Counted from the stretch's first letter, positions 88 through 11,095 are shown. The stretch is DNA of 11,095 nt from Candidatus Eiseniibacteriota bacterium (GCA_963783375.1 CAWANH010000009.1:1-11095); one strand, 5' to 3'. Translations and numbers: made by a program. Notes: generated from the sequence alone by a model not told the origin.

Positions 88-251
88 AAGGTGACGCGGT
101 CTCTTCGTGGGCGCGACGGGGGCTGCGTGCTATTTCCCAAAGGGCGAGCGTATCGCACGCCCTTGACTCCAGGTCCAGCCTCGCGGACCGAAAACCTGGT
201 TGCGTGGGTTCCGTCCCAAGTAATCGGTCAAGTCCCTGCGAGGAGATCCAA

Positions 252-2411
252 GTGAGAAACGCTCTGTTGGGACGGATCCGTGTATCCGTCGGTTTGGCGG
301 CTCTTGCCGGCCTGATCGGGGCGGCCGTCGCGCTCGGCGCCCCCGCCCCCGCCCCCGCCGACGGTAAACTCGATTCCCGACTTCAGGCTCTGCTGGATCA
401 CGCCGGCGTCCCGGCCGCTCCCGGCATGGTGGACCAGGACGGGACCGTGGAGGTGATCGTCCGCGGCGACCTCGACCGCGAGTTCCTGAAGGGGCTGGGC
501 GCCGAGCCTCAGACCGTCCTCTCCGGTCTTGTAACCGCCCGGGTCCCGGTGGACGCCCTTCCGGCCCTCGTCGCCTCGAGGCGGATTTCCCGCATCCAGG
601 CCGGGTCCGGAATGGAGTATCTCCTCGACAAGAACCAGGTCGAGACCGACGTCGAATCGATGTGGGGAGGAGCACCGCCCCAGTACCCCACCGGCGGCTA
701 CACCGGCCAGGGCGTGGTCATCGGCATCGTGGACACCGGGATCGACCGCAATCACCTCGACTTCAAGAACGCCGACGGCACCACCCGCATCCGCTACATG
801 TGGGACCACACCGGGGGCCCGGAGCCTCCGCCCGCCGGCTACACCTACGGCCAGGAGTGGACGGCCTCGGAGATCAACGCCGGCCAGTGCATCGAACAGG
901 ATGCCGTCGGCCATGGGACCCACATCGCCGGGGTGGCGACCGGGAACGGCCGGGCCACCGGGAACGGGGTCCCGCAGTTCACCTACGTGGGCATGGCCCC
1001 CGAGGCGGACATCATCGCGGTCAAGCTGGACTTCCCTTCGGATGTGGAGGTCATCGACGGGGTCTCCTACATCTTCCAGAAGGCCGACCAGCTCGGCGAG
1101 GACGCGGTGGTGCTGCTGGCGGTGGGCAAGCAGTCGGGGCCCCACGACGGCACCGATCCCCTGGATCTGGCCATCGACGCCATGACCGGTCCGGGCCACC
1201 TAGTGGTGGCCGCCGCCGGCAACGAGGGCATGAACAAGATCCATTCCGAGATCGCGATCACTCCCCACCAGACCACGAGCACGACCTTCAACATCCCGAG
1301 CTACGGCTACGCCAGCAACCCGTTCATCGCGGTGGACGGATGGCTGACTCAGGGCCCGACCATATCGGTGACCCTTACCACGCCGTCGGGATACAACCTC
1401 GGTCCCATCGCCGTCGGGCAGGTCAACGTCTGGAGCAACGCCGACGGTTCGGTCCGACTCGAGGTTCCTGCGGGGAGCCCCACCCAGTTGCACCTGTCGG
1501 TCAGCAATCCGGGGGCGGGGACCTGGACGGTAAGGGTCAACGCGGGAAATTCCAGCTCCGGCACCATGGACTTCTGGATCTCGGATTACGACCTGGCCGG
1601 CTCCAAGCCCGAGATGGTCCAGGGGCAGACCTTCGCCAAGTGCGTCGCGTCGCCGGCCACCGCGACCAATGTCGTGGCGGTGGGGGCCTACACCACCAAG
1701 AAATACTGGACCGACCAGTACGGCGGGACGAAGTTCTATCTGAGCGCGGTCATGGACCAGATCGCCGACTTCTCGAGCCGGGGCCCCCGGCGGGACGGCG
1801 TCCTGAAGCCGGAGATCACCGCGTCGGGCTACGGCGTGGCCTCCGCCCGCTCCACCGCCGCCACGATCTACTCGGGTTACATCGTGTTGGACAAGGTGCA
1901 CTGCATGATGTACGGCACCAGCATCGCCGCGGCCTCGGTCGCGGGGGCGGCCGCACTCCTGCTCGAGGAGTTCCCGGGTCTCGATCCGTCCTCGCTGAAG
2001 ACCCTCCTCCAGGGGCGGGCCAACGTGGACCAGTACACCGGCGCGGTCCCCAACCCGACCTGGGGATACGGGAAGCTCTGCTTGACCGCCGCCACCACCG
2101 CGGTGGGGGACACCGGACCGGGGACCGGGCTTCTGACCCGCATGCTGGGCGCGCCCTATCCGAACCCGACCGGGGCCATGACCCGGGTGCCGGTGAACCT
2201 CGACGTCGCGGGGGACGTGACGGTCTCGGTGTACGACGTGACCGGCCGCACGGTGAGGGTCCTCTATTCCGGCTCCATGGACGCGGGCCCGCATGTCCTG
2301 AGCTGGGACGGTACGAACCAGATGTCCCAGGCCGTGCCCTCGGGGAGCTACTACGTGGTCGCGGTGAATCGCACCGCCCGCGAGAGTCGCGCGGTTCTGA
2401 TCCTGCGATGA
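252..2411 (+). CDS. Secreted S8 subtilisin-family serine protease (CspA-like subfamily) with prodomain and C-terminal FlgD-Ig/T9SS type A sorting-like domain, 719 aa
   Basis: GTG start at 252 after AGGAG (241-245); hydrophobic signal peptide. Catalytic Asp in VIGIVDTGID (732-734), His in GHGTHIAG (912-914), oxyanion Asn in AAAGNEG, Ser in GTSIAA (1920-1922). Also HLDFKNADGTTRIRYMWD, FSSRGP..LKPEITASG and PNPTWGYGKL. C-terminus YPNP..VSVYDVTGRTVRVL..WDGTN..VPSGSYY. Confidence 0.95.
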   Translation: MRNALLGRIRVSVGLAALAGLIGAAVALGAPAPAPADGKLDSRLQALLDHAGVPAAPGMVDQDGTVEVIVRGDLDREFLKGLGAEPQTVLSGLVTARVPVDALPALVASRRISRIQAGSGMEYLLDKNQVETDVESMWGGAPPQYPTGGYTGQGVVIGIVDTGIDRNHLDFKNADGTTRIRYMWDHTGGPEPPPAGYTYGQEWTASEINAGQCIEQDAVGHGTHIAGVATGNGRATGNGVPQFTYVGMAPEADIIAVKLDFPSDVEVIDGVSYIFQKADQLGEDAVVLLAVGKQSGPHDGTDPLDLAIDAMTGPGHLVVAAAGNEGMNKIHSEIAITPHQTTSTTFNIPSYGYASNPFIAVDGWLTQGPTISVTLTTPSGYNLGPIAVGQVNVWSNADGSVRLEVPAGSPTQLHLSVSNPGAGTWTVRVNAGNSSSGTMDFWISDYDLAGSKPEMVQGQTFAKCVASPATATNVVAVGAYTTKKYWTDQYGGTKFYLSAVMDQIADFSSRGPRRDGVLKPEITASGYGVASARSTAATIYSGYIVLDKVHCMMYGTSIAAASVAGAAALLLEEFPGLDPSSLKTLLQGRANVDQYTGAVPNPTWGYGKLCLTAATTAVGDTGPGTGLLTRMLGAPYPNPTGAMTRVPVNLDVAGDVTVSVYDVTGRTVRVLYSGSMDAGPHVLSWDGTNQMSQAVPSGSYYVVAVNRTARESRAVLILR

Positions 2412-2422
2412 TCTGATCCTGC

Positions 2423-2499
2423 GGGCGGGTCGCGGCACCCGCCCCACCGTCATTCCGATCGTCGTCGGCGGCCCGGCTCTCTCCGGGCCGCCGCTTCAT
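2423..2499 (+). terminator. Two GC-rich hairpins after the protease gene; probable terminator or mRNA-stabilising structure
   Basis: GGGCGGGT-cgcggc-ACCCGCCC (2423-2444) and CGGCGGCCCGG-ctctct-CCGGGCCGCCG (2466-2493), followed by only a weak U-tract (CTTCATGTT). Confidence 0.55.
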
Positions 2500-2694: not shown

Positions 2695-2710
2695 TGGCAT
2701 CCGGGTTGCA
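2695..2710 (+). promoter_or_regulatory. Sigma54 (RpoN) -24/-12 promoter
   Basis: TGGCATCCGGGTTGCA: exact GG-N10-GC spacing and close to TGGCACG-N4-TTGCW; 55 bp upstream of ATG 2765. Confidence 0.8.
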
Positions 2711-2764: not shown

Positions 2765-3382
2765 ATGTCTCGCAGGCAATTGCCGGTCTTGATCGGAGCG
2801 GTCCTTTTCTCGGGGGTCGTTCTCCTCGGTGAGCAGCGGGCCGAGGCGGTCTCGGACACGGGTCTGGCCCGGGGGCTCGGCCATGAGGTGTCCTACCGCG
2901 TTCTGGAGCAGGGGCGGGACGGCCCGTGGATGAGTTCCATGGTGCGGCTCTTCTCCAACCAGGAGGATTGGGACGCGGCCATGTCCGCACTCGCCGCCCG
3001 GGCGCTTCTCGTCATGGCACCGGTCTCCGCGCCCCGGGACGTCGATTGGAGCCGGCAGACGGTGATCCTGGTCACGATGGGAGAGCTTTCCGGAGGCGAC
3101 TACTCCGTCCAGGTCCGCGACATTCGCCGCTCGGGTTTCGCGTGCGTCCTCGACCTCGAGTGCAGCGGCTCCTCCACCCGCGGCTGGGGTCGGAGCGCCT
3201 GCCGCCCCTACCAGATGATCGTGATCGAGAAGCATGGGGTGAAGGAGGCCCGGGGACGGTTCCGCTGGACCGGTGAAGGGACCGCCACCGCCCGGGCCGC
3301 GGCGCAGGGTTGGGGTCTCACCGGGGACGCCGGCGCCGCGCGCCGTCTGAGCTGGGGCGCGCTCAAGGCCGGGGGATACTGA
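2765..3382 (+). CDS. Secreted PrcB C-terminal-domain-like (protease complex subunit) protein with C-terminal SWGALKAGGY tail, 205 aa
   Basis: ATG 2765 preceded by GGAGG. Signal peptide ending AEA. Core VDWSRQTVILVTMGELSGGDYSVQVRDI...PYQMIVIEK resembles the PrcB_C pattern (vDF.....l.v.mGe.ptgGY.v.v...Py.iv.i.k). The longer ORF from 2498 runs through the promoter region, so 2765 is preferred. Confidence 0.8.
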   Translation: MSRRQLPVLIGAVLFSGVVLLGEQRAEAVSDTGLARGLGHEVSYRVLEQGRDGPWMSSMVRLFSNQEDWDAAMSALAARALLVMAPVSAPRDVDWSRQTVILVTMGELSGGDYSVQVRDIRRSGFACVLDLECSGSSTRGWGRSACRPYQMIVIEKHGVKEARGRFRWTGEGTATARAAAQGWGLTGDAGAARRLSWGALKAGGY

Positions 3383-3444: not shown

Positions 3445-3472
3445 AGGGCCGCCGGCCGAGCCGGCGGCCTTT
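3445..3472 (+). terminator. Probable intrinsic terminator
   Basis: GGCCGCCGGC-cga-GCCGGCGGCC (3447-3469) followed by TTT. Confidence 0.6.
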
Positions 3473-3476
3473 CCGA

Positions 3477-3505
3477 TTGACTGGGTCGGTAAGTACTCGT
3501 AAATT
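3477..3505 (+). promoter_or_regulatory. Sigma70-type promoter for the YjbH-like pair
   Basis: TTGACT (3477-3482), 17-bp spacer, TAAATT (3500-3505); 35 bp upstream of ATG 3541. Confidence 0.7.
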
Positions 3506-5654: not shown

Positions 5655-6026
5655 ATGCGCTCCAACCAGCCCTATCGCCGTATCTCTTTCTTCGCCATCG
5701 CCGGTATGGCCTTCTTCGCCCTGGCCGCATCGGAACCGCAGTGCGCGCGGGTGGGCGATCAGGTCGTGTCTCCGGACGGTACGTCCCTCAACAGCAACAA
5801 GGGTGGGGTTTCGCAGTGCGTACGCGCCTGCGTCGATGAGGCCCAGCAGCGTCGTGCCGACGAGAAGGACCTCCACCACACCAACCTCAAGAGCTGTGCG
5901 GGCGACTGGCAGTGTCACCAGGAAGAGGAGGCCCGTCACGAATCGGTCATGGAGCAGATCGCCATGGACCAGCGTGACTGCAAGGCCCTTTGCCACAATC
6001 AGGGAGGCGGGCACGGCGGGCAATAG
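5655..6026 (+). CDS. Small exported Cys/His-rich protein (possible lipoprotein) of unknown function, 123 aa
   Basis: AAGGGGGA RBS-like sequence upstream; basic N-region plus hydrophobic h-region; 7 Cys (C30, C55/C59, C81/C87, C109/C113); followed by a strong terminator. Confidence 0.8.
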   Translation: MRSNQPYRRISFFAIAGMAFFALAASEPQCARVGDQVVSPDGTSLNSNKGGVSQCVRACVDEAQQRRADEKDLHHTNLKSCAGDWQCHQEEEARHESVMEQIAMDQRDCKALCHNQGGGHGGQ

Positions 6027-6104: not shown

Positions 6105-6249
6105 TGTGCCGGCGCTCGGAGCGCACGGCGCCCTGACCGCTCCCGGTGGATGTCCGAGCTTCCGGGGTACTTGCGTGCGCTCGAATGTCCGCCGCGCCGG
6201 CGGGTTCAAGACACTTCCAGGCCGAAATTTCCGTCCGGCCGTCGAACTG

Positions 6250-6258
6250 TGATAAAAT
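6250..6258 (+). promoter_or_regulatory. Extended -10 promoter element for the radical SAM gene
   Basis: TGATAAAAT (TGnTAAAAT) 40 bp upstream of ATG 6299; -35 region weak. Confidence 0.5.
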
Positions 6259-6298
6259 CCATCCTCGTTCCGGTCGATCACCTCTTCACCAGGGCAAC

Positions 6299-7492
6299 AT
6301 GACGCGAACCACTCCAGACCACGCCACGGACACTCCGGCGCCTGGGGCGTCTCGGGAACCCTTCCACGCCGCGGCGCCGGGATCCGCTCCCAAGGGACCG
6401 GGGCCCCGTCCGGATGCGCCACCGGCCCCGGTTCCGGATTCCCCCTCCCTCTTCCGTCACGCCGCCGCCCACCGGCGCATCGTGCCCGAGGACCTGCTCC
6501 TGGTCCTCACCTACCGGTGCAATTCCCGGTGCGTGATGTGCGGGATCTGGGAGGCGGACCAATCGGGCAAGGGGGAACTCACCCCGGAGGACTATGCCCG
6601 GGTCATTCCCGATACCCTCCTCAACGTGAACCTCACCGGAGGCGAGGTGTTCCTCCGGAACGACCTCCCCGCGGTGGTGGCCGCGGTGCGCTCCGCCGCT
6701 CCCCGGGCCAAGATCGTGATCTCCACCAACGGCCTTCAACCGCGCCGGACCCGTAAGATGATTCCGGAGATCCTGCGGGCGGATCCCGGGATCGGTTTCG
6801 CGGTCTCGATCGACGGCGAAGAGGATGTTCACGACCGGGTACGCGGCATCCGGGGGGGATGGAAGAAGGCCTACGAGACCGTGCAGGTCCTCCAGGAGGA
6901 GGGGGTCACCAACCTCCGCATCGCCTTCACCGCCACCGTGAACCAGGTCGCCGACAACACTTCGCACCTGGGGAAGATCTACGACCTCGCCCGCCGCACC
7001 GGGGTGGAGTTCACCTGCGCGGTGGCTCACAACTCCGACCACTACTTCAAGACGAGCTCCAACAAGGGGGTGAACGTCGACGAGCTGACCCGGCAGCTGG
7101 ACTACGTGGCCGGGAACGAGCTCCGGAGCGGGAAGCTCAAGAGCTGGCTCCGCGCCTACTTCCACAAGGGCCTGGTGGAGCACGTCAAGGCCAACGTCCG
7201 GCCCACCCCGTGCGAGGCGGCCCATACCAGCCTCATGATCGATCCGGTGGGGGACGTCTATCCCTGCAACATCCTGAACCTGCCGGTGGGTAACATCCGA
7301 AAGACCCCGTTCATGGAGATCTGGCGCTCCCGGAGAATGGAAGAGGTCCGGGACGTGGTACGCGGGTGCAACCAGCCCTGCTGGATGGTCTGCACCGCCC
7401 GGGCCAGCATGCGCCGCGACAAGACCCAGGTGCTCTCCTGGGTGGCCGGGAACAAGGTCAAGGCCCATCTGGGTCGTTCCATCATCCGCTGA
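6299..7492 (+). CDS. Radical SAM enzyme with C-terminal twitch/SPASM-like auxiliary Fe-S domain, ~397 aa
   Basis: LTYRCNSRCVMC (CX3CX2C), NLTGGEVFLR, ISTNG, VSIDG..HDRVRG; C-terminal CEAA..IDPVGDVYPC..VGNIRKTPFMEIW..CNQPCWMVC. Start codon uncertain (Pro-rich N-terminal extension). Confidence 0.93.
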   Translation: MTRTTPDHATDTPAPGASREPFHAAAPGSAPKGPGPRPDAPPAPVPDSPSLFRHAAAHRRIVPEDLLLVLTYRCNSRCVMCGIWEADQSGKGELTPEDYARVIPDTLLNVNLTGGEVFLRNDLPAVVAAVRSAAPRAKIVISTNGLQPRRTRKMIPEILRADPGIGFAVSIDGEEDVHDRVRGIRGGWKKAYETVQVLQEEGVTNLRIAFTATVNQVADNTSHLGKIYDLARRTGVEFTCAVAHNSDHYFKTSSNKGVNVDELTRQLDYVAGNELRSGKLKSWLRAYFHKGLVEHVKANVRPTPCEAAHTSLMIDPVGDVYPCNILNLPVGNIRKTPFMEIWRSRRMEEVRDVVRGCNQPCWMVCTARASMRRDKTQVLSWVAGNKVKAHLGRSIIR

Positions 7493-10301: not shown

Positions 10302-11095
10302 ATGGTGAAGGTCGGCGTGGTCGGATGCGGATATTGGGGCCCGAACCTGATCCGGAATCTGGTGGAGAACCGCCGGTGCGAGGGCGTGGTGGTCTGCGAC
10401 CTGGAGCAATCCCGGCTGGACTACGTCCGCCAGAGGTTCCCGGTGATCGGCACCACCCTCGACATCCAGGAGATCCTGGACGATCCCGCGATCCCGGCGG
10501 TGGTGATCGCCACCCCGCTCTCCACCCACTTCGACCTGGCCCGCCGCGCCCTCGGCGCGGGGAAACACGTCTTCGTGGAGAAGCCCTTCGCCCATACCTC
10601 GGTCCAGGCCCAGGCGCTGATCGACCTGGCCAAGGCCTCGGGGAAGGTGATCATGGTCGGTCACACCTTCGAGTACTCGCCCGCGGTTCGGAAGATCGGC
10701 GAGGTGATCCGTTCCGGTGAACTCGGCGACGTGTATTACATCTCGTCCACACGGGTGAATCTCGGACTGCACCAGAAGGACGTCTCGGTGGTCTGGGATC
10801 TTGCCCCCCACGATCTTTCCATGATCTTTGCCTGGCTGGGGGAGCACCCGGTCCAGGTGGTGGCGGTGGACGGGACTACGTCCAGCCCGGGCTTCCCGAC
10901 GTGGCTTTCATCGACCTCATCTTCGGTTCCGGCGTCCTGGCCCACGTCCAGGTGTCGTGGCTCTCTCCCTCCAAGCCCGAAACACACCATCGTCGGATCC
11001 CGGAAGATGCTGGTTTACGACGACACCGAACACCTGTGAAGGGTGAAGAGTCTTCGACAAGGGAGTGAACTCTACCGCGATCCCCAGACGTTCGG
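10302..11095 (+). CDS. Gfo/Idh/MocA-family NAD-dependent oxidoreductase (probable nucleotide-sugar dehydrogenase), 3'-truncated and frameshifted near the window end
   Basis: AGGAG (10290-10294) then ATG 10302; VGVVGCGYWGPNLIRN, VIATP..HF, GKHVFVEKP, MVGHTFEY, WDLAPHD. Similarity continues in another frame from 10871 (RDYVQPGLPDVAFIDLIFGSGVLAHVQVSWLSPSK), then TIVGSRKMLVYDD and VFDKGV. Confidence 0.9.

Follow-up and report, generated by a model that had tools for sequence, protein, structure and literature searches.

The closest described counterparts of the element treated here are C-terminal sorting signals and anchors. In PEP-CTERM/exosortase systems (TIGR02595, PF09721), many exported proteins of one genome carry a short C-terminal tag. 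In secretion by the type IX system (T9SS; PorU, PorV, SprA), which like the tag described below is confined to lineages related to the Fibrobacteres-Chlorobi-Bacteroidetes (FCB) group, unrelated Sec-exported proteins end in a type A C-terminal domain (CTD; TIGR04183/PF18962, in the genome studied here of the FlgD_ig type, PF13860). The C-terminal helix of PBP5 and the membrane-targeting sequence of MinD are C-terminal amphipathic membrane anchors, that is, short terminal stretches with aromatic and basic residues and no transmembrane segment. In connection with the cargo, PMC8167434 describes Treponema denticola PrcB as a lipoprotein partner of PrtP, a subtilase with which it interacts and which it anchors and stabilises at the outer membrane, its acyl group and that of PrcA1 presumably anchoring the PrtP complex there. 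Here we report on an exported PrcB-like protein (the focal protein) and its C-terminal tail, RRLSWGALKAGGY, encoded in an 11,095-nucleotide stretch of DNA from Candidatus Eiseniibacteriota bacterium (GCA_963783375.1, CAWANH010000009.1:1-11095; the window). A sequence-only reading of the window had proposed that the tail is a sorting signal tied to the adjacent polysaccharide locus. From comparison with many genomes, we find instead that the RRLSWGALKAGGY end is probably a diverged member of a phylum-wide tag, and likely an address or anchor label whose reader belongs to envelope machinery with genes elsewhere in the genome and not to the polysaccharide locus.

A recurrent C-terminal tag and its distribution

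Contig C9, which is the window, belongs to a 4.73-Mb genome (69% G+C, 97% complete, 1.75% contamination). We scanned the 37,814 stop-to-stop open reading frames (ORFs) of at least 60 amino acids in its six frames for the core motif [ST]WG.[ILVM]K. The motif occurs 63 times, and 56 of the occurrences lie within 15 residues of the stop, compared with 0.64 predicted by the internal rate. As a control, reversing the motif gave no C-terminal and six internal matches. The enrichment at the C-terminus thus exceeds chance. From the 52 distinct tails we derived P-[VT]-P-[VT]-E-x-T-[TS]-W-G-x-[LIV]-K-x-x-[YF] as consensus; mostly 0-2 residues come after it, and a Cys often stands just upstream of it. 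Counting from the Trp, there is a Pro at -6 in 44 of the 52, a Glu at -4 in 32, a Thr or Ser at -1 in all and a Tyr or Phe at +7 in 50. A profile of the tail added about 13 W-S variants, which brings the total to about 70 tail ORFs (those on small duplicate contigs included), and the tail is therefore not peculiar to the focal protein.

The proteins that carry the tag appear to be exported and otherwise unrelated. A signal-peptide-like start was found in 59 of 66 tail ORFs compared with 164 of 400 control ORFs, by a hydrophobicity heuristic that is permissive, 41% of the controls being positive. The cargo of 20 sampled tail proteins is either domainless or of unrelated kinds, among them cupredoxin, phosphoesterase, Big_5, fn3, beta-helix and lamin-tail (LTD) domains. 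In none of these 20 proteins is the tail covered by a Pfam or NCBIfam model, all nine isolated tails searched against NCBIfam at E values up to 10 gave nothing relevant, and a search of the literature found no paper describing the tag. These data agree with the statement of the sequence-only reading that similar termini recur on secreted proteins and that their machinery is poorly characterised.

The tag is also widespread in other genomes of the phylum. In a sample of 121 genomes of the window's phylum, with at most 71 candidates scored per genome, the tail profile matches 119, usually 10-70 times each; in one family of 26 genomes (f5) there are only 0-6 matches per genome. A degenerate DNA pattern for P-x-E-x-T-T-W-G-x-I-K-x-x-Y, run on a collection of species genomes, matched at least 122 loci. 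Among the 122 matches listed, an in-frame stop follows within 0-9 codons in every case and within 0-5 codons in 120. Going by title, 80 of the listed loci comprise 30 from Eisenbacteria/Eiseniibacteriota, five from Krumholzibacteriia, four from Latescibacterota, two from Effluviviaceae and one from Gemmatimonadota, along with 38 without a taxon. Whole-genome searches gave 59 and 32 tail matches in Latescibacterota-titled genomes, 29 in a Krumholzibacteriia and 34 in an Effluviviaceae genome, in line with the earlier statement that such tails are common in FCB-related candidate phyla. As a control of specificity, 120 other genomes of the phylum of the Gemmatimonadota-titled genome were searched at E <= 1e-4, and none has the tail. 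PorU exceeds its cut-off in 18 of 61 genomes of that phylum. Because 13 genomes that appear in both searches have PorU and lack the tail, the tag does not simply follow the presence of T9SS; it is lineage-restricted. The Gemmatimonadota-titled metagenome-assembled genome itself (G121) has three tail matches, on the small contigs C68 and C75, and no PorU match, and these tails may stem from bin contamination or gene transfer.

A few tail genes of the Eiseniibacteriota genome deserve separate mention. The largest tail-bearing paralogue group lies in two clusters, C29:1341809-1349242 (minus strand) and C28:1096982-1100335 (plus strand), whose members end in ...YNPC(T)...TTWGxLKxQY(H/N); among them, in either cluster, is a protein of about 850-880 residues with Big_5 repeats. 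In the ORF at C28:1279421-1280569 (minus strand), the motif (VPVEASVPSTWGRIKALY) stands right after a signal-peptide-like N-terminus and not at the C-terminus; about 180 residues follow, with a Cys-rich end. Lastly, the tail gene T35 directly adjoins a PEP-CTERM ORF (TIGR02595, 35 bits) at C28:2013779-2014828 (minus strand).

The focal protein and its PrcB-like family

The frame of the focal protein runs from 2765 to 3379 with the stop at 3380-3382, and the ATG at 2765 is the most likely start. Its parts are as follows (AF2, AlphaFold2; pLDDT, predicted local distance difference test).

2765..3382, plus strand: focal gene, coding for an exported PrcB-like protein of 205 residues plus stop (ORF, translation, homologues P0002-P0004 and profile matches)
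2765..2848, plus strand: predicted signal peptide (MSRRQLPVLIGAVLFSGVVLLGEQRAEA) without a lipobox Cys (hydrophobicity heuristic and direct reading, with an inferred cleavage site)
2882..3274, plus strand: PrcB_C-related core domain, residues ~40-170 (AF2 pLDDT >90; weak PrcB_C and denti_PrcB matches)
3275..3340, plus strand: variable Ala/Gly/Thr linker, residues 171-192 (varies among homologues; pLDDT 56 for residues 171-180 and 45 for 181-190)
3341..3379, plus strand: tail RRLSWGALKAGGY, residues 193-205, a diverged [ST]WGx[LIV]Kxx[YF] tag (homologue alignment and profile score)

Residues 176-205 (3290-3379) read ARAAAQGWGLTGDAGAARRLSWGALKAGGY, so that the Ala/Gly/Thr linker and terminal tail are found where the sequence-only reading had placed them. 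The AF2 model, built on 70 family sequences, gives low pLDDT to residues 1-29 and predicts a short helix at residues 197-202, after the disordered linker, with a pLDDT of about 50. Foldseek found no PDB entry similar to the model at E <= 0.001, and the core fold has no name beyond PrcB_C.

The focal protein shares with Treponema PrcB the PrcB_C-related cargo domain and the company of a subtilase, its gene lying beside that of an S8 subtilase as PrcB partners PrtP. On its own, however, the protein stays under both curated cut-offs, with 17.8 bits against Pfam PrcB_C (PF14343, cut-off 24) and 27.8 bits against NCBIfam denti_PrcB (NF033596, cut-off 125; E 2e-6). Homologues linked to it by profile do exceed the PF14343 cut-off, with 30-43 bits, and the family can be tied to PrcB because its tail-less relatives L027-L029, which have lipoboxes (LAGC, PGC and SGC), pass PrcB_C with 42-43 bits. 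In contrast to PrcB, the N-terminus of the focal protein contains no Cys and hence no lipobox, and the protein has the C-terminal tag instead. Its gene also lies 3' of the protease gene as a separate unit, with a hairpin and a promoter-like element in between, and the S8 neighbourhood is confined to this genus.

Whether the focal tail belongs with the others can be judged from its own family. The core SWGALK ends four residues before the stop of a protein with a signal-peptide-like N-terminus, and the string RRLSWGALKAG.Y recurs unchanged in each of the four close homologues, at identities as low as 58%, although the linker preceding it varies. A family profile run on the 121 phylum-sample genomes matches 14 of them. 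The aligned ends of the distant homologues read TTWGRVKSFYR, MTWGGVKSAYR or TSWGAMKAEYR, or have the W-S form, and in L025, L026 and L030 canonical tags stand at the aligned position of the same cargo family. A search of 1.84 billion library representatives gave 189 family members at E <= 0.001; among the best 150 of these, crude patterns found the tail only in 56, a lipobox only in 20, both in five and neither in 69. In total, 61 of these 150 end in the motif, many of them likewise without the P-x-P-x-E stretch (e.g., VSWGALKGIYR). Judged by these alignments, the focal tail is a diverged member of the tag class. The same counts suggest that in this family the tag tends to replace the lipid anchor, though not strictly.

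Gene neighbourhood and the polysaccharide locus

The genes and signals that flank the focal gene in the window are the following.

204..2411, plus strand: S8 subtilase whose C-terminal domain is of the T9SS type, FlgD_ig / Por_Secre_tail (Pfam Peptidase_S8, E 5e-42)
2466..2493, plus strand: GC-rich, terminator-like hairpin 3' of the S8 gene (11 G-C pairs, terminator scan)
2695..2710, plus strand: sigma-54-type -24/-12 element, TGGCAT-N5-TTGCA (pattern scan; predicted function)
3446..3470, plus strand: GC hairpin followed by TTTCC, terminator-like, 3' of the focal gene (12-pair stem, RNA fold)
3477..3505, plus strand: sigma-70-like promoter match 5' of the first YjbH-like gene (TTGACT-17-TAAATT, 9/12, a consensus match only)

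The C-terminal end of the subtilase matches FlgD_ig (E 1.9e-11) and NCBIfam TIGR04183 (29.5 bits, cut-off 23). The sigma-54-type element noticed by the sequence-only reading is present, 54 nt 5' of the ATG, and rpoN is present in the genome. The hairpin at 3446..3470 has a z score of -2.3 for a 118-nt stretch and fails the T-run rule of the terminator scanner. As there are hairpins 3' of both the S8 and the focal gene, and a sigma-70-like match before the YjbH genes, the focal gene appears to be monocistronic and transcribed from its own sigma-54-type promoter. Downstream lie two YjbH-like ORFs, a small Cys-rich ORF, a radical S-adenosylmethionine (radical-SAM)/SPASM enzyme, an NTP-transferase and an exopolysaccharide (EPS) priming sugar transferase (TIGR03025, 384 bits), with 159 nt between the focal gene and the YjbH-like pair and 5.3 kb between it and the priming transferase. 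Pfam and NCBIfam matches bear out the names given earlier to the YjbH-like pair and the priming transferase, and that of the S8 peptidase too.

The whole length of C9 is 96.55% identical to C28:1786387-1797487 of the same assembly. Because of this identity over the full length, the second copy of the focal gene, on C28, is a duplicate or strain-variant contig rather than an independent paralogue. The small contigs C11, C14, C24 and C26 likewise duplicate tail genes of large contigs.

Two further observations concern the downstream genes. The small Cys-rich exported ORF (5655-6026) adjoins the radical-SAM/SPASM enzyme (6146-7492), and two genomes of the same genus (L155 and L156) have conserved this pair, along with the YjbH pair and the NTP-transferase, the radical-SAM proteins being about 82% identical; it may represent a modified peptide or protein inside the polysaccharide locus. 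At the end of the window, a Gfo/Idh/MocA frame (10308-11093) has an in-frame stop if read through to 11093, which may be a frameshift or the true end of the gene.

In related genomes, the YjbH cluster and the focal gene part company. The same-genus genome G003 has, in this order, an S8 gene (50% identity), the YjbH pair, the Cys protein, the radical-SAM enzyme and the NTP-transferase, with less than 200 nt between S8 and YjbH, and a homologue of the focal gene was found nowhere in that genome. G027 keeps the block from YjbH to the NTP-transferase without S8 or the focal gene, and in G006 and G036 the focal homologue and YjbH are on different contigs. In the genome of the window, YjbH-like genes occur only at this locus, and the tail genes are scattered over the contigs.

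With regard to sigma-54, the strict pattern occurs 10 times in the genome, including the sites before the focal gene and its C28 duplicate. Of 57 further tail genes none is preceded by it, and one is when the pattern is relaxed. The expected enrichment of sigma-54-type promoters before tail genes was thus not seen. At L024:2-1192 in G036, a genome of the same order, a PrcB-like homologue with a W-S tail has a sigma-54-dependent activator (Sigma54_activat, E 2e-66) immediately upstream of it. Given this arrangement and the presence of rpoN, sigma-54 control may be real for the focal gene family, yet it is not a property of the tag.

The genome also has a genuine exosortase (C29:332746-333501, 235.6 bits), with its Bac_transf gene 11 kb away, and five PEP-CTERM ORFs over the TIGR02595 cut-off, none of which is a tail ORF. 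There is no tail gene within 25 kb of the exosortase, and TIGR02595 matches none of the 20 sampled tail proteins.

What may read the tag

We favour a dedicated protein reader of the tag, because the flanking residues (Thr/Ser at -1, Tyr/Phe at +7) are kept across phyla, the Pro-x-Pro-x-Glu is fixed and the tag lies near the free end of the chain. Some of the data weigh against an envelope label of this kind, or against the place of the focal tail in it, in addition to the permissiveness of the signal-peptide heuristic. No reader was found: the nearest tail genes are 14-21 kb from the PorU-like paralogue of this genome, and homologues of this paralogue occur in 118 of the 121 genomes, including one without any tail match (G078), and so do not discriminate. 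Lipobox and tail are not strictly exclusive, as five of the 61 tail bearers in the family also match the crude lipobox pattern. The helix predicted in the tail has a pLDDT of only about 50. As for the partner protease, the S8 gene adjoins the focal gene only in this genus (none of seven other loci has one within 1.5 kb), and G003 has the S8 orthologue without the focal gene. Finally, the focal tail scores 8.4-9.2 bits against the canonical profile, compared with 20-37 bits for canonical tails, and ranks 75-80 among 19,892 scored ORF ends (27,826 submitted), amid noise ORFs; it has GAARR upstream in place of P-x-P-x-E, a Gly at +7 and its Tyr at +8 rather than +7.

The low score, the absent P-x-P-x-E and the shifted Tyr are what one would expect if the focal tail were a decayed tag or a chance resemblance, no longer functional. 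We consider this very unlikely, since the string is invariant in all four homologues to 58% identity while the linker varies, the motif ends 61 of the 150 family representatives, many of them lacking P-x-P-x-E as well, and chance would give 0.64 C-terminal matches genome-wide. Even less credit, and hardly any, is due to the proposal of a sorting or glycan-anchoring system, with the tail as its tag, that would be linked to the polysaccharide locus and to sigma-54 in analogy with PEP-CTERM/exosortase. The sigma-54-type element, the YjbH-like pair and priming transferase downstream and the G036 homologue beside a sigma-54 activator would fit it, but across the genome the association disappears: a distance of 25 kb from the four Bac_transf loci takes in just one of the roughly 70 tail genes, the focal one, and the same distance from the exosortase takes in none, and at most one of the 57 others has a sigma-54-like site. 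Similarly, the YjbH family has a single locus here and is present in 28 of the 121 genomes, compared with 119 for the tail, while G003 and G027 keep the YjbH cluster without the focal gene and G006 and G036 have the two on separate contigs. Nor does the tail follow the logic of PEP-CTERM, as it lacks the PEP motif, the transmembrane helix and the basic, Arg-rich end, is not linked to EPS loci, and stands in a genome with a separate, genuine exosortase and five PEP-CTERM proteins. On these counts, distances, phylum profiles and the synteny of G003 and G027, we rejected a link of the tag to YjbH and the polysaccharide genes.

Two other explanations have more to recommend them. One is that the tag is a minimal type IX-style signal, by which lineage-specific paralogues of the PorU-like C25 peptidase and the PorV-like shuttle would fasten cargo to the surface; we hold this to be a real, if rather unlikely, possibility. 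The genome with the tag also has T9SS machinery. SprA is over its cut-off (432.8 bits); a PorU-like gene (376.7 bits) and the PorV-like gene that comes after it (98.8 bits) do not reach theirs. There are five further PorV-like matches, another PorU-like protein that itself has a CTD, and some 45 proteins with CTDs. Moreover, among 56 tail proteins queried, two with canonical tails, T17 and T18, are paralogous to proteins with a T9SS CTD at the end, so that tail and CTD alternate there, and the named tail-bearing lineages are all FCB-related. On the other hand, the tag measures 15-17 residues, comes after a linker of low confidence and has no fold of its own, whereas the CTD is a beta-sandwich of 70-100 residues, and the T9SS CTD models match no tail. 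No ORF passes the NCBIfam PorU2 model (NF052324; best 85 bits, cut-off 450), and opposite-strand genes lie between the PorU-like paralogue and its nearest tail genes, 14-21 kb away. No tail gene is directly beside a C25-like, PorV-like or exosortase gene; one is found two genes after a PorV-like match. The PorU-like paralogue is present in 118 of the 121 genomes regardless of tail count, and the 13 Gemmatimonadota-phylum genomes with PorU and no tail indicate that possession of a canonical T9SS is not enough for the tag to be present. In addition, one cargo is a cupredoxin, and cupredoxins are usually periplasmic. The other explanation is that the tag is a self-sufficient amphipathic helix that binds the membrane as an in-plane anchor, with no dedicated reader; we regard it as a serious rival, albeit one that is unlikely to be right. 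A helical wheel groups W0, I/L3, (L6) and Y7 on the face opposite to that of K4 and R8, the AF2 model has the helix at 197-202 after the disordered linker, the tag tends to replace the lipid anchor in the PrcB-like family, and one protein has the motif just after its signal peptide. However, the motif is defined by Trp, Gly and Lys, with Thr/Ser at -1 in 52 of 52 tails and a fixed P-x-P-x-E 4-8 residues upstream, and it lies 0-5 residues from the stop in 120 of the 122 listed cases across phyla. Such a strict motif, its fixed upstream element and its constant distance to the stop argue for recognition by a protein and not for a general affinity for lipid. The Gly right after the Trp is unfavourable for a helix, and the helix itself is predicted with low confidence. 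The PBP5 and MinD anchors differ from the tag likewise, as the tag is far more conserved in sequence and has the Pro-x-Pro-x-Glu upstream, its own membrane binding being putative.

Returning to a dedicated reader, a plausible course of events is as follows. The focal gene would be transcribed alone from the sigma-54-type promoter, and after Sec export of the protein the flexible linker would present the tag, perhaps as a short amphipathic helix (a low-confidence prediction) with Trp, Ile/Leu and Tyr on one face and Lys/Arg on the other. It would then be for the reader to retain the protein at the outer envelope or fasten it there. In the PrcB-like family, the tag would thereby do the job that the N-terminal lipid does in PrcB-type lipoproteins, and the focal protein may work with the neighbouring S8 subtilase, much as Treponema PrcB does with PrtP.

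More tentatively, and with doubts that outweigh our confidence, the [ST]WGx[LIV]Kxx[YF] tail could be the address label of an undescribed C-terminal sorting route without a transmembrane segment, common to Eisenbacteria, Latescibacterota, Krumholzibacteriota and Effluviviacota-type bacteria and used by about 1-2% of their proteins. In such a route the tag could stand in for lipoprotein anchors and T9SS CTDs, and its reader would be lineage-specific, possibly made up of paralogues of the T9SS attachment complex.

For the locus itself, these results mean that the tail protein is unfit for inferring the function of the YjbH, radical-SAM and EPS cluster. Should the tag prove to be a signal for sorting or anchoring, it would mark the envelope and surface proteome of several uncultured phyla, with dozens of proteins concerned per genome, mostly annotated as hypothetical, and a very short type without a transmembrane segment would join the known C-terminal sorting signals. 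A curated model of the tag would at once improve the annotation of these proteins.

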